Part shown: positions 47,894 to 56,252 of the stretch, piece after piece
Layout: each line of letters opens with the position of its first letter
Position numbering within the stretch: the first letter of the stretch is position 1
Assembly: GCA_963828125.1 (NCBI GenBank)
Contig: CAWHDP010000002.1
Coordinates: 1,728,001-1,792,000 of the forward strand
DNA from: an uncultured Chlamydiae bacterium
GTDB taxonomy: Bacteria > Chlamydiota > Chlamydiia > Chlamydiales > SM23-39
Direction of reading: 5' to 3'
DNA length: 64,000 nucleotides
The notes under the pieces: generated by a model
Databases searched by the model: none
Seen by the model: the letters and a program-made list of their open reading frames with translations, nothing else
What the model was told of the DNA's origin: nothing
Position numbers and translations under genes: made by a program

Positions 47894-48730
47894 TCAAGCA
47901 TCGGTATACTCCAGAAAGCCAGTCGAAGCAATTTCTTTCGCTTTTTCGATCAATTCAACTTTTGAGTGGCAAGAGAGTTTATTTTTTATGGATGAGATGT
48001 AGCTTTCAACCGTTCGAACGCTGCCTAAGTGGAGTTTTTCCTTGATATAGGAGGCGGGAAACCCGTTTGCCAAAAATGCAAGGACCTCTTTTTCCCGTGG
48101 CGAGAGGGCAAAAATCGCAGTACACCCCAATTCGCGTAAAAAACCGGACCGGTCGCAGGGAGTGACTCCCCCTTTTGGAGGCTCATAAAGGGCCCTGCCC
48201 ATCAATGGATTTAAATCGACCCCGTTATCCTCGACCGAACGGATGAGTTTTTGATGTCTTTTCCGAAATTCCTTAGTGAAATAACGGAGGAGAGGGAGTT
48301 CGTTCAGAAGCCTCTCTTCCGCCTCAAGATTATTGAAACGGGTACCAAATCCAAATGCGGAGATCCCTTCAGAGCAGCGTTCGAATATATTGAGATTGAA
48401 ATGAATGCCAAATTTTTCCCAGATGGTGTTCAATATTTCTTGGGCCTCCGCATTTAAACCCGTTTTCATGAACGTGATTCCAGGCTGCAGAACATCTGGA
48501 TGGCGTACGCAAGGGAAGTATTTAATAAGGCCATAATGGGCGCAGTACTCATTCCATGCCTCATGCGTCCCTACGTACGCATAAGTTCCATCGGACAAGA
48601 TCCGGTAATACCAAAAATGGTTGATCCCAAAATGATCGAAAAGGGGCTGGGCAAAACGAACCATCGACCCAAAATAAGGAGAGGATTGATTTCTCCTCGT
48701 CATCTCTATCAGAGGTTTCATACCGGGCAT
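47894..48730 (-). CDS. Solo LuxR-family transcriptional regulator
   Basis: C-terminal HTH LSPREKEVLAFLANG...RTVESYISSIKNKL; N-terminal putative sensor domain; no luxI in window. Confidence 0.85.
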   Translation of the reverse strand: MPGMKPLIEMTRRNQSSPYFGSMVRFAQPLFDHFGINHFWYYRILSDGTYAYVGTHEAWNEYCAHYGLIKYFPCVRHPDVLQPGITFMKTGLNAEAQEILNTIWEKFGIHFNLNIFERCSEGISAFGFGTRFNNLEAEERLLNELPLLRYFTKEFRKRHQKLIRSVEDNGVDLNPLMGRALYEPPKGGVTPCDRSGFLRELGCTAIFALSPREKEVLAFLANGFPASYIKEKLHLGSVRTVESYISSIKNKLSCHSKVELIEKAKEIASTGFLEYTDA

Positions 48731-48830
48731 TTTACAGATTGTTATTATTTCCTACAAGTTGATTCAGAAAAGGCGTTAACTATTATAATAAAGGAATTTC
48801 AAGCATCATATTATAAATTTTTTGCAATAC

Positions 48831-48894
48831 CTAGCCCGCATTTCTCACACATCCGCGGAAAATCTGCTCAATCTGTGTGAGAAATGCAGGCTCG
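48831..48894. mobile_element. Family A MITE, deleted form, overlapping the Ank-SET 3' end
   Basis: ctag-cccgcatttctcacac...gtgtgagaaatgcagg-ctcg. Confidence 0.85.
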
Positions 48895-50475
48895 ATCGTT
48901 TACGGTTTGAAGATGATTCCATACTTTTAAAAAAGGTTCTTCTAGCAAAGAGGCGTTGATCTCGGATAGTTGCCCAAGGGCTTTTATTTTTTTTAATAGG
49001 AATTGATTGGTGTTTGTCGCAACAATCAAAACAGTTTTAATACCTGTTCTGGACGGGAGACGCTTAAAATATTCTTCATAGGCTGAGGCGGCTTTAGAAG
49101 AATACGTCCGGACTCCTTCCCTGACCTCGATGCACTCCAAAGCCGTATTGAGAAGCTGTTGTGCATCTATTTTCGCTTGAGTATGAAGAGCGTCAAAGAG
49201 AGAAATCATCTTCGCAAGTTCTGTCGCTTTTTCCTTGTTCAACGTCCCGTCGAAAATCATTGAAAAATAGACCGATAGAGTTTCCAAAATATACCGAAAT
49301 TTTTCGGCCAAAGCCACTTGATTGAAGTCAAGATCGCCCGTGGCACCACGGACGAATAGGTAACGTCCCAATTCAGCAATATCGTGCTGTTGAATGAAAT
49401 CTCTAACCTCTTTTGGCCGGAGTTCTGCATAAGGCCCATACTTAACGGCGTGTTTGCCGTAATGCCAACAAAACTGTTCTCCTGGTGCAATGGGGTTTGT
49501 GGCAACTAGGACACGGCGGTCATGAACTCCTTGTAGATCTCCAATATGGAGCAAGGCCGTATTGGGGAACCCATCGTTGATTTGCGGGATCTCATTTCTA
49601 AATTCCAGACTGTCTATTGGACCTAGCACGTAGGGGTTATGGATCTCCCGATGGGTCAGCACACCTTTATAGTCTCCGATGAAGCTTTGCGACTCAATAG
49701 AGTTCTTAGCAAAAAGGCCGAGTCCGGGGCTGCATACTAACCTGCTACCGACAGAGTCGTGAGTCACTCTGGACAAAATATGCATCACAGGAATATGCCG
49801 CGTATATCTATTCCTAAATTGATCTGTGAATGGGAACACCTCAGGCAGCGAGCCAACCTCAAACAAACGGTGCTTAGGAATCTGGTGTTCATCAATGAAA
49901 GTCGCCCTTGTGAGTTCCTGAAATTTTCCCCGAGTCAACACTGTTTCTGCCCCTTGCTCATCTCTCCAAATCACCCCAATGAGCGCCTGGGGATCGTTCA
50001 ATGGGGACTTGACTAGATTTAAAACATCCGTGTAGCTTCCCCCCTGTCTGGTCAAACAAGCGGGGTCGGCCCCTCGACTGAGCAAGTACTTGATCATTTG
50101 AGCATCGGATCCCAAGGCAGCCATATGGAGCGGCGTCCACTTCGTCGAATCTGCGGCATTGAGATCGGCGCCAGCTTCCACCAACCTAGTCACAGCCCCC
50201 TGGTTTTTAAAAATCACTCCTATATGAAGGGGGGTGAGCCCTCTGCTATTCAAAGGTTCATTCAATCTAGAGCGCCCTGCCAATGGGATTGCAAAATCTA
50301 CGACGGCATCGATCCCTTCCAAAATAGCCGCATTCAAAGCGGCGATGGATACCGATAGGTCATACTTTGGTTTTTTGAAGTTTTTTTGACTACGCTCCTT
50401 TTCAAGCTCTAATTGCTCCCAGATATTTTTTTTCAATCCGGTCACAAACGGATCATGACCTTTTATTTCGTTCAT
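48868..50475 (-). CDS. Ankyrin-repeat + SET-domain protein
   Basis: GLTPLHIG/WTPLHMAA ankyrin repeats; SET motifs GLGLFA...FIGDYKG, INDGFPN, IAPGEQFCWHYG. Confidence 0.8.
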   Translation of the reverse strand: MNEIKGHDPFVTGLKKNIWEQLELEKERSQKNFKKPKYDLSVSIAALNAAILEGIDAVVDFAIPLAGRSRLNEPLNSRGLTPLHIGVIFKNQGAVTRLVEAGADLNAADSTKWTPLHMAALGSDAQMIKYLLSRGADPACLTRQGGSYTDVLNLVKSPLNDPQALIGVIWRDEQGAETVLTRGKFQELTRATFIDEHQIPKHRLFEVGSLPEVFPFTDQFRNRYTRHIPVMHILSRVTHDSVGSRLVCSPGLGLFAKNSIESQSFIGDYKGVLTHREIHNPYVLGPIDSLEFRNEIPQINDGFPNTALLHIGDLQGVHDRRVLVATNPIAPGEQFCWHYGKHAVKYGPYAELRPKEVRDFIQQHDIAELGRYLFVRGATGDLDFNQVALAEKFRYILETLSVYFSMIFDGTLNKEKATELAKMISLFDALHTQAKIDAQQLLNTALECIEVREGVRTYSSKAASAYEEYFKRLPSRTGIKTVLIVATNTNQFLLKKIKALGQLSEINASLLEEPFLKVWNHLQTVNDRACISHTD

Positions 50476-51779
50476 ATGCCATGCCTCACAGGATGGTGAG
50501 GGCCTAATTCAAAAAATCGCTGCTGGAGTGTTATATTGCTTTCCAGCTGACGGAGGACATGTCGAGCTGGATGAATCAATGCTTGTAGCAAGGGCTCTTC
50601 TACGTTCTGATCGTTGATACGCCACTCGTTGTGAATGGGCTGCTCTCTGTAGCGCTCCATCCTCTCTGTCCATTCTCTTAATTTCACGCTAAAAAACAAC
50701 ACTTTCTTGCGAGCCAATGTATTAATTTTTTTCATTTCATCCTGCGGCGAACATTCAATTAAGCTGCGATATAAAGAAAGGTATTTATCGAGAACCATCC
50801 GATTTGCAATGAAGCCGTCAGTTCCCCAGGGACCATAATCATTAAACAAACTGCATCTATGAGGCAGTTTATCGAGCTCTTGTATGCTGGCTCTGATCTG
50901 CGAGGCCCTTTCAGCAATAGGGAGAGAGCGATCCGGCGGATGAATAGAGAGAACCGCTTGTTTGGTTTTAACAAAATTCAGCACCCTCCAGAAATTTAAA
51001 ACAAGCTGGCGTCGATTGAGATCTAGCGACAGATTATCGGGCGCTGCATCTATCAGGTTGATTTCAAACATAAATGTCTTGAGGAGGGGGATAAATGCTT
51101 CGATATCGGCCAATTGGTACTGAGGACGTATCCGATCCAAACAGATTCCGTATTCTTTAGCTCGAATATAGTTAGTTTCTGTTCCTGCTGTATAATCGTA
51201 TCGAAAGCCGCCGGATGGATGATTCCGTACCAACGCTAGGTATGCTTCATGGATTTCTTTAAAACGCCCAGGAGCGCCTCCCTTATCCGGATGGTGTTTC
51301 AGCGCCAGATCTTTATATCGCTTTTTTACCTCTGTTGGACTGGCACTGGAATTTAATCCGAGCACTTCAAGGTGGGCATTCGCAGAAAAATCTCCTGTTG
51401 CGCTTTTGTCCTGCGGCAGAGGGCAAGAATAATCGTTGGTCCCTGGTTCTTCCGGCATCGTTTTCATCACACGCTCAAACCAAAGCTGCCACCGCATATC
51501 TTTAGGCCGAGTCAGCCTCGGAGGAGAGGCCGAATGTCTTGCAATAAAAATGTGCCGTGAAGAGAGAGGTCTGGAGTGACCCGGTTGATCTACATATAAC
51601 TGGGGCCTCTGGCCCTGCCAGAAGAAAATCCGCGGACCCGAAGCGTGCATATACATATATGGAGATCTCCCAGTGGCCACTCTCTCTCCACGATTCCGAA
51701 TCGTATCTTCCACCTTGTTACTTTCTAGCCGCACGATCTTTCTCTCTCGTTGTGTTGGATTTTTGCATCGACAAATCAA
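50472..51779 (-). CDS. Orphan protein with internal DnaJ (J) domain; start uncertain
   Basis: LEVLGL...EVKKRYKDLALKHHPDKGG...FKEIHEAY. Confidence 0.78.
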   Translation of the reverse strand: MICRCKNPTQRERKIVRLESNKVEDTIRNRGERVATGRSPYMYMHASGPRIFFWQGQRPQLYVDQPGHSRPLSSRHIFIARHSASPPRLTRPKDMRWQLWFERVMKTMPEEPGTNDYSCPLPQDKSATGDFSANAHLEVLGLNSSASPTEVKKRYKDLALKHHPDKGGAPGRFKEIHEAYLALVRNHPSGGFRYDYTAGTETNYIRAKEYGICLDRIRPQYQLADIEAFIPLLKTFMFEINLIDAAPDNLSLDLNRRQLVLNFWRVLNFVKTKQAVLSIHPPDRSLPIAERASQIRASIQELDKLPHRCSLFNDYGPWGTDGFIANRMVLDKYLSLYRSLIECSPQDEMKKINTLARKKVLFFSVKLREWTERMERYREQPIHNEWRINDQNVEEPLLQALIHPARHVLRQLESNITLQQRFFELGPHHPVRHGI

Positions 51780-51853
51780 TTATTGTTGGACGATCCCTCG
51801 TTCATTCTACTCAATCTCCGAAGATTATGCGGGGAATGAGGCTTTATAAAATG

Positions 51854-55973: not shown

Positions 55974-56031
55974 AGGCTTTCTCCTTTTAAAAGCTGCACA
56001 TAGCATGAACAACACGCCGAATTAAAAAAAC

Positions 56032-56046
56032 CCGTAAAAAATACGG
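56032..56046 (-). promoter_or_regulatory. Operator 5, CCGTA-AAAAA-TACGG
   Basis: 24 nt upstream of CATGCT (56002-56007). Confidence 0.75.
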
Positions 56047-56050
56047 TGTT

Positions 56051-56123
56051 TATACTGCGGCCACCCCAAATGCACACTTTTGGGGTGGCCGCAGTATAAC
56101 TGGACATTGGCCAATGTCCAGTT
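56051..56123. mobile_element. Family B element (56051-56098) abutting a family C palindrome (56098-56123)
   Basis: tatactgcggccaccccaaa...tttggggtggccgcagtata; aactggacattggccaatgtccagtt. Confidence 0.85.
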
Positions 56124-56252
56124 CAAGAATCATATTTTAATATTTGCAATATTGCGATCGTTAATTTTTCGGCCAAAGCCACTTGATCGAAGTCAAGAGT
56201 GTGCGTGGTTCTCCGGCCAAAAACGGATCATGACCTTTTATTTCGTTGATAT
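56122..56252 (-). pseudogene. Collapsed relic of the Ank-SET gene
   Basis: 56212-56252 matches 50437-50477 (38/41); 56163-56198 matches 49298-49333 (35/36); 56122-56162 resembles 48798-48830 plus 48893-48900. Confidence 0.85.

Follow-up and report, generated by a model that had tools for sequence, protein, structure and literature searches.

Solo members of the LuxR family without a pocket of the N-acyl homoserine lactone (AHL) type include OryR/XccR, PluR/PauR, and the SdiA-type orphans. A survey of LuxR solos from 2015 lists, in the portion drawn on here, two solos for the group 'Chlamydiae/Verrucomicrobia' and names Methylacidiphilum among the non-proteobacterial solos (PMC4338825). A full-text literature search, judged from its result listings, returned nothing relevant to LuxR regulators of environmental chlamydiae. 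Methylacidiphilum is a verrucomicrobium, and to our knowledge few chlamydial transcription factors have known operators together with known target sets; we know of no chlamydial transcription factor that senses a small molecule via a LuxR-type pocket. Here we analyse an accessory island in a 64,000-nucleotide stretch of DNA from an uncultured Chlamydiae bacterium (assembly GCA_963828125.1, contig CAWHDP010000002.1; the whole stretch is called the window, and positions are counted from its first letter). The island lies between kdsB and the gene for a PhoR-like sensor kinase, and carries a gene for a LuxR-type solo receptor and a small cluster of palindromic CCGTA boxes in front of genes of eukaryote-like or orphan character (Table 1). 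Comparison with related genomes indicates that the island LuxR probably activates the box-bearing promoters through these CCGTA boxes.

The pattern CCGTA-N5-TACGG (motif C) occurs in three exact copies in the 2.37 Mb assembly, all of them inside the island and within 4.2 kb (51854, 52613, and 56032); its core, CCGTANAAAATACGG, likewise has three exact matches genome-wide. The three boxes share one orientation and are 72–81% identical across 32 nt. Their number is ordinary, because the same genome also contains two matches to the reversed control; what stands out is the clustering. A matrix trained on 15 sites from relatives and on none from the window scored 25 genome positions above 10 bits, and four of its top five (51854, 56032, C1:216649, 54606, and 52613) lie in the island, the fourth being the near copy designated box 3. 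A further, degenerate copy at 54519 may, as a conjecture, be a disrupted site. The tally as read from sequence is thus three firm sites, one probable site (box 3), and one degenerate site. The spacers around the boxes are unique in the genome, including the interior around box 3 (54547–54725), and a location of box 3 within a mobile 241-nt element was ruled out because this interior is unique. The candidate at C1:216649 lies inside an open reading frame (ORF) of 2065 aa and was treated as a chance match. This ORF (C1:213753–219947), autotransporter-like and with Gly/Thr-rich repeats, holds the sole high-scoring box-like match outside the island. In the 137-nt gap upstream of luxR, neither a promoter-like site nor a box was found.

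The same box is linked to LuxR genes elsewhere in the order. The comparison set consisted of 40 relatives, and related loci came from Parachlamydiaceae, Rhabdochlamydia, and Chlamydiales metagenome-assembled genomes (MAGs), with one genome labelled Verrucomicrobiae. Homologues of the window LuxR were found in 21 of the 40. Exact CCGTA boxes number 41 in these genomes, and matches to the reversed control number 99. A LuxR-homologue match is found no more than 50 nt away from five of these boxes, 800 nt from 10, and 3.5 kb from 13, where a crude expectation would be 0.02, 0.07, and 0.23, respectively, and where P values are overstated, the relatives not being independent. At five loci luxR is followed by a box at or just after its stop codon and then, 51–57 nt further on, by a gene for a GNAT protein of about 250 aa. 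Boxes at other loci precede hypothetical genes, genes for a glyoxalase or an aminotransferase, or genes for a 234-aa regulator; the last of these (loci L053–L056) encode a SnoaL-like domain with a GerE-type helix-turn-helix (HTH), and the box stands just upstream of the regulator's own gene. In a test set assembled by GNAT homology alone from 200 genomes of the order, five of ten new loci had an upstream box, three of these also with an adjacent luxR, and the other five loci were boxless. Within the genus, the extended box was no commoner than the reversed control when one mismatch was allowed.

The luxR-box-GNAT module is conserved in several chlamydial families (loci L033, L034, L036, L038, L039, L070, L073, and L077). 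A model of the GNAT partner (predicted local distance difference test, pLDDT, 91) has the Legionella effector VipF and other tandem GNATs as its best matches. The partner was ruled out as a LuxI-like synthase, since its profile matches ordinary GNATs and its tandem-GNAT fold is like that of VipF.

The distance between box and promoter is also kept. We scored as -10-like any hexamer matching TATAAT at no fewer than four of six positions, provided that position 2 was A and position 6 was T. Such a hexamer lies 22–25 nt from 20 of the 24 boxes in relatives, where 21% would be expected by background, the range having been set after the first sites were seen. The same spacing is found for all six boxes of the independent GNAT set and for three of the four in the window. 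By inspection, no -35-like hexamer adjoins the box. With the -10 hexamer taken to occupy -12 to -7, the 15-bp core would extend from about -50 to -36 with its centre near -43/-44, which suggests the position of a class II activator; it is from box position only that the sign of regulation, activation, is read. The 58 nt between box 4 and the start codon of the CaaX gene compare with the 51–57 nt that precede the GNAT genes in relatives.

The relation between the box and the protein that may read it came to light at the loci of the closest orthologues. Since no CCGTA box lies within about 4 kb at the 13 closest-orthologue loci (37–57% identity) or at the same-genus paralogue loci, a blind dyad search was made there, and it yielded two further box types. 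Of 12 loci, six carry an exact GAGTA box, TAGAGTA-N5-TACTCTA: in five orthologue loci it precedes the luxR match by 25–45 nt, and in the sixth it follows the match by 70 nt. When up to two mismatches are allowed, 11 of the 12 have a copy no more than about 150 nt away, and four orthologue loci have two GAGTA boxes spaced 22 nt apart. The GGGTA box, TAGGGTA-N5-TACCCTA, was found at the paralogue loci. The -10 spacing is kept by five of six GAGTA boxes and by 8 of 12 GGGTA boxes. The orthologues of this clade are divergently paired, in 8 of 12 loci, with a gene of about 250 aa whose product is a distant relative of the cyclodipeptide synthases (CDPS; PDB 5ocd, E 4e-10). At loci L011 and L059–L068 one or two GAGTA boxes lie between the luxR orthologue and the CDPS-like gene.

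Box type varies with one residue of the recognition helix, the one that follows the invariant Glu in RTVE-x-Y. When exact boxes are counted per row from -1300 to +700 nt around the HTH, Asn (RTVE-N) goes with GAGTA in 6 of 12 rows, His (RTVE-H) with GGGTA in 5 of 20, Ser (RTVE-S) with CCGTA in 8 of 11, and Phe (RTVE-F) with CCGTA or CTGTA in 7 of 10; Tyr at this residue likewise goes with CCGTA or CTGTA boxes. No cross-type pairing was seen, and one locus has two box types. The window LuxR is among the three boxless Ser rows because its boxes lie beyond the search range. A tree of 42 sequences has one major clade with the Ser, Phe, and Tyr rows and a second clade with the Asn rows; the His rows form a third group and also occupy several places within the Ser/Phe/Tyr clade, and the pairing of His with GGGTA has at least two origins. 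The window LuxR falls inside the Asn clade (support 100/100) as sister to a sequence from a Rhabdochlamydia MAG (99/89), and its helix reads RTVESYISSIK. In the homologue search, no other of the 64 top-ranked sequences has Ser at the code residue. Its own genome lacks the GGGTA box and has a single GAGTA box, distant from luxR. Covariation between helix and box supports direct recognition of the box by the protein, as far as sequence comparison can speak to it.

The protein itself resembles quorum-sensing receptors in its modelled fold. Within its 278 aa, residues 209–263 match the GerE HTH (PF00196) with 45.9 bits against a cut-off of 23.5; PF03472, the profile for the N-terminal domain, found no Pfam match in the window LuxR. 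An AlphaFold2 model built with 43 homologues (pLDDT 94) points to the two-domain receptor fold: the top Foldseek matches are SdiA, RhlR, LasR, TraR, QscR, and CviR, all full-length (E 5e-7 to 1e-3), and the target-normalised template modelling score against LasR ligand-binding domains is 0.62–0.69. Sequence support for the N-terminal domain is weak, a profile search having found the TraR ligand domain at E 0.003. The HTH invariants E178, L182, and G188 of TraR correspond to E213, L217, and G223 in REKEVLAFLANG, with the same four- and six-residue spacing, and across 44 homologues E213 never varies and G223 hardly does. In the pocket, W57 and P71 of TraR are kept, Y61 is replaced by Cys63 and D70 by Phe72 (HMMER alignment to TraR and one further alignment), and W85 and G113 align to non-conserved columns. 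The survey cited above counts W57, Y61, D70, P71, W85, and G113, with HTH residues, among nine invariants, and takes replacement of the conserved pocket residues as a hint of a non-AHL ligand (PMC4338825). Because pocket invariants are replaced, an AHL is an unlikely ligand for the window LuxR.

A homodimer model reached an ipSAE interface score of 0.67, as against 0.00 for the best of three controls; among proteins of solved structure, 20 of 30 pairs and one of 23 single chains reached the mark for a dimer. Three runs share at least 92% of contacts, with a partner pLDDT of at least 85; this outcome may reflect likeness to LuxR dimers already solved. The window LuxR is the sole GerE match above cut-off in the genome, and the LuxI profile PF00765 has no match in the assembly, which is 95% complete, so that the apparent absence of a gene is provisional. 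Neither a CDPS-like gene nor a GNAT partner was found in this genome. By these sequence searches the LuxR is a solo regulator. Seven repeated ORFs, most of about 439 aa (C1:294836, C1:386065, C2:568956, C2:1648346, C2:1657351, and others), show sub-threshold GerE likeness and are probably insertion sequence transposases.

In the mechanism that we propose, a LuxR dimer would bind the 15–19 bp dyad (TA)CCGTA-N5-TACGG(TA), the centre of which would lie about 43–44 bp upstream of the predicted transcription start, in promoters with a -10-like hexamer and no recognisable -35, and LuxR would act there by class II activation. Its targets would be the J-domain/Ank-SET unit, with possible read-through into luxR, the orphan gene, the CaaX micro-protein gene, and, probably, the F-box-like gene. 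The receptor descends from the GAGTA/CDPS-paired clade; here it would have lost the partner gene and the GAGTA box, and the Asn of the recognition helix would have changed to Ser, matching the CCGTA-linked regulators. The sequences, counts, spacing, covariation, and fold are the observed part of this account; LuxR binding, activation, ligand dependence, the nature of the ligand, feedback, and secretion and host action of the cargo are what we infer from the arrangement as a whole.

Several observations weigh against this proposal. By descent the window LuxR would be expected to bind GAGTA, and the loci of its closest orthologues and same-genus paralogues lack the CCGTA box, as described above. 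Its helix differs from that of the sister sequence at several positions beyond the Asn to Ser change, and the helix code is loose because three residues, Ser, Phe, and Tyr, share CCGTA-type boxes. The boxes do not adjoin luxR and lie 3.1–8.1 kb away from it. Box 3 has one altered half-site (TACAG), box 4 is followed only by a weak -10 (CATGCT, matching at three of six positions), and the 2H gene has no intact box. A lax scan flagged all four window copies, on the minus strand, as weak terminators consisting of a 5-bp stem and a T-run. The non-independence of the relatives and the choice of the spacing range after the fact, both stated with the numbers concerned, count on the same side.

The alternative that survives best holds that the CCGTA boxes belong to another regulator, having come, for example, with cargo acquired horizontally from a chlamydia with a LuxR of the CCGTA type, and that the island LuxR binds GAGTA or nothing here. 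It would agree with the nesting of the window LuxR in the GAGTA/CDPS-paired clade, with the 13 orthologue loci that have no CCGTA box, with boxes kilobases away from luxR, and with the low GC content of an island at a rearrangement point. What makes it unlikely is that the 95%-complete genome has no second GerE-type protein above cut-off and no GAGTA box near luxR, that the helix carries Ser as in CCGTA-linked regulators and not the Asn of its clade, and that three perfect boxes keeping the -10 spacing would be unexpected if unused.

Some members of the LuxR family are repressors, and the LuxR might bind the boxes and repress, or have mixed effects, with a ligand relieving repression as in EsaR-type systems. 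The sign of regulation is not readable from the sequence itself, which leaves some room for this option. We nevertheless regard it as rather improbable, given that a box near -43 without an adjoining -35 is the geometry of a class II activator and that relatives show this geometry again at 20 of 24 sites.

It is very improbable that the short palindromes are RNA hairpins, serving as weak terminators or stabilisers at 3' ends, and not protein sites. The four flagged window copies fit such a role, as does the frequent position of the motif in relatives within 30 nt of the luxR stop codon. The half-site, however, is conserved across families of the order, unlike terminators, and T-rich tails are missing from relatives; no gene precedes box 3 on the same strand, and neither the fixed distance to the downstream -10 nor the covariation with the protein helix would be expected of a hairpin.

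The spacers of the island hold four palindrome families, A, B, C, and D, and three of them are of another kind than the candidate operator C. Family A (core TACTGCGGCCAC) has 125 exact half-sites genome-wide, made up of 40 pairs and 45 solo copies; the pairs are palindromes of 44–78 nt, and the family occurs in both orientations, mostly flanked by TA. A recent, lineage-specific burst of family A is suggested because each of the 40 relatives has 0–1 copies. Family B (core ACTGGNCATTGGCCA) has 30 exact matches genome-wide and 73 with one mismatch, and family D (core CCCGCATTTCTCA) has 65 exact matches; copies of B and D frequently adjoin copies of A. With their dispersal through the genome confirmed, A, B, and D read as miniature-transposon-like repeats unrelated to the operator. 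Like miniature inverted-repeat transposable elements (MITE) and repetitive extragenic palindromic (REP) elements, they are short spacer palindromes with many near-identical copies, and they have merely colonised the same spacers as motif C. The notion that there is no operator and that all the shared palindromes are such dispersed repeats is accurate for A, B, and D, with their 125, 30, and 65 exact matches and the lineage specificity of A, and deserves hardly any credence for motif C, which lies outside any repeat in three exact copies and is linked to LuxR genes in genomes without the repeats.

The original prediction had placed one copy of the same palindrome, its sequence unspecified, in each of five cargo promoter regions. 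For motif C, this becomes three exact copies, one near copy, and one degenerate copy instead of five equal operator sites, and the 2H gene is left without an intact box. If the conspicuous GC-rich palindrome of family A was meant, which is indeed present once in each of the five spacers, the claim falls, as this palindrome belongs to the dispersed repeats and does not represent an operator. The expected inverted repeat near -42 agrees with the box centre predicted at about -43/-44 from the -10 spacing. Co-occurrence of luxR and the motif, proposed as a check, is borne out in that motif C stands beside LuxR-family genes in relatives, and fails in that the closest orthologues use GAGTA and are CDPS-paired. 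As a whole, the idea of a locally encoded switch is upheld in part: the link between box and family, the -10 distance, the helix covariation, and the fold speak for it, and the lack of an intact box at the 2H gene does not.

We also consider, with somewhat less than even confidence, a wider picture drawn from the same comparisons. Chlamydial LuxR receptors may form a large and so far undescribed family of ligand binders with a one-residue code for the outer bases of the box xxGTA-N5-TACxx, in which Asn would specify GA, His GG, and Ser, Phe, or Tyr CC or CT; the window receptor would have lost its CDPS-like partner, changed Asn to Ser, and been rewired to eukaryote-like and orphan genes of host interaction, possibly sensing a signal of which the bacterium itself is no longer the source.

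Table 1. Genes, candidate boxes, predicted -10-like hexamers, and dispersed repeats in and around the island
Feature	Position	Strand	Remarks
kdsB, left flank	46994..47770	+	Pfam CTP_transf_3, E 2.9e-37
LuxR-type solo receptor, autoinducer-binding-domain-like N-domain and GerE HTH	47894..48730	-	likely start ATG 48721
Ankyrin-repeat protein with probable SET domain (Ank-SET)	48868..50475	-	from Pfam scores
J-domain protein	50472..51779	-	DnaJ 46 bits; start uncertain
Orphan gene	51975..52502	-	likely start ATG 52478 after GGAGG
2H phosphoesterase protein, HIT-like HPHSHVL motif in C-terminal extension	52865..54445	-	
Orphan protein, F-box-like N-terminus (lead only)	54795..55688	+	
74-aa Pro/Ser-rich protein, CaaX-type end	55749..55973	-	KRTKDSTSCPCTIL; ATG preceded by AAGGAG
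Ank-SET paralogue relic, internally deleted	56163..56260	-	direct repeats D2 and D3; overlaps 3' end of kinase ORF
PhoR-like sensor kinase, right flank	56228..57688	-	HAMP, PAS, HisKA, and HATPase domains
Box 1	51854..51868		CCGTAGAAAATACGG; exact; upstream of J/Ank-SET unit; matrix 24.8, rank 1
-10-like hexamer CATAAT	51824..51829	-	24 nt from box 1
Box 2	52613..52627		CCGTAAAAAATACGG; exact; upstream of orphan gene; matrix 17.2, rank 5
-10-like hexamer TACAAT	52584..52589	-	23 nt from box 2
Box 3	54606..54620		CCGTAGTTTCTACAG; near copy; between 2H and F-box-like genes; matrix 17.6, rank 4
-10-like hexamer TAAGAT	54645..54650	+	24 nt from box 3, toward F-box-like gene
Box 4	56032..56046		CCGTAAAAAATACGG; exact; 58 nt before CaaX ATG; matrix 20.7, rank 2
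Degenerate box	54519..54533		CCGTAGAAAGTACTG; distal half overlapped by A-repeat end; below matrix score 10
Family A copies	51925-51958, 52692-52720 (partial), 54529-54546, 54726-54775, 56047-56099, 17072-17145		
Family B copies	47865-47891, 51905-51923, 52764-52841, 56099-56126		
B half-copy and short A palindrome	51905..51958		
Partial A copy and B-family inverted repeat	52692..52841		
Full A palindrome and full B palindrome	56047..56126		
D-family inverted repeat I16	48833..48892		spans Ank-SET stop codon, in gap before luxR
D-family palindromic repeat	52494..52537		within predicted 5' leader of orphan gene; 52 BLAST matches genome-wide

The island is a low-GC accessory stretch, its GC content dipping to 0.42–0.47 versus 0.50–0.57 on the kdsB side. 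It lies at a rearrangement point, or synteny breakpoint, because in two contiguous relative genomes the distance from kdsB to the kinase gene is 28 and 64 kb and both genes are on the same strand, as opposed to opposite strands in the window. No paralogue of any island gene was found in the genome itself (tblastn, E 1e-3). In the Ank-SET relic at the right border (56163–56260), the N-terminal coding end of an Ank-SET paralogue is fused to a segment about 1.1 kb more internal; its direct repeats D2 and D3 are 81% and 88% identical to 49298–49356 and 50437–50485, respectively. The kinase ORF runs into this relic: matches in relatives end at residue 450–455 of 486, and kinase residues from about 456 to 486 are without counterpart in relatives.

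The gene content had been described largely as we find it. The order and strands of the genes, with luxR downstream of the J-domain/Ank-SET unit, the two flanking genes with their CTP_transf_3 and HAMP/PAS/HisKA/HATPase matches, the LuxR-type HTH without a luxI, and the J-domain all stand, and so does the ATGA overlap between the J stop and the Ank-SET start (50475–50472). The ankyrin repeats are clear (Ank E 2e-12), and the claimed SET domain is weaker, its 21.0 bits falling short of the Pfam cut-off of 22.4. In the 40 relatives, the Ank-SET protein has weak partial homologues only, and similarity to the J-domain protein is confined to the J-domain. For the 2H protein (526 aa), the first half of the claimed 2H and HIT combination is retained marginally (2H-SAK, 27.1 bits against a cut-off of 27); a HIT domain has no Pfam match, leaving the HPHSHVL motif and one PDB match at E 0.36, and six homologues each span just 44–56% of the protein. 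The F-box was not recovered: the 297-aa protein has no Pfam match (E up to 10), no PDB match by sequence, and no homologue among 5.8 billion proteins. A lead comes from language-model features, by which 11 of 30 atlas matches fall in an F-box family set with a score near 0.90. The CaaX micro-protein is as described, with an ORF of 88 aa, or 74 aa from the ATG, and the C-terminus CTIL. The product of the orphan gene is 167–175 aa long, depending on the start, and has no Pfam match, no usable atlas match, and no paralogue. A 24-nt tandem duplication in perfect register (52324–52371) doubles eight of its residues. The genome encodes one SctV-type FHIPEP gene and four TLC nucleotide transporters. 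Domain resemblance alone suggests that the cargo may act as host-directed effectors.

If the proposal is right, a box, a regulator, and a regulon would be defined together for an uncultured chlamydia and would be amenable to work in E. coli without culturing the organism, and the regulons of other uncultured chlamydiae would become predictable from sequence. The LuxR helix would offer a natural one-residue specificity switch, and an obligately intracellular bacterium would be seen to time its host-directed genes by a diffusible cue.

Three systems come closest to the locus described here. With the LuxR solos that have non-AHL pockets, the window LuxR shares the two-domain fold, the lack of a LuxI, a dyad near -43, and replaced pocket residues; it differs in its obligately intracellular chlamydial host, in that PF03472 is not detected, and in its eukaryote-like and orphan targets. 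Its dyad is 15–19 bp long, versus the 20 bp given for the lux box in the portion of the survey drawn on here (PMC4338825). The chlamydial LuxR/CDPS-like units are its nearest kin by descent, being in the same clade, with the same xxGTA-N5-TACxx architecture and -10 spacing. These units have a divergent CDPS-like gene, GAGTA boxes, and Asn in the helix, whereas the window LuxR has no CDPS-like gene, CCGTA boxes, Ser, and several distant putative targets. The luxR-box-GNAT modules have the same CCGTA or CTGTA box, the same distance from box to start codon, and the same RTVE-S/F-Y helix as the window, but they belong to another LuxR clade (24–31% identity), keep Asp70, and have a single adjacent tandem-GNAT target. 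To these known arrangements the window adds a candidate target set of several promoters and the covariation between recognition helix and box.

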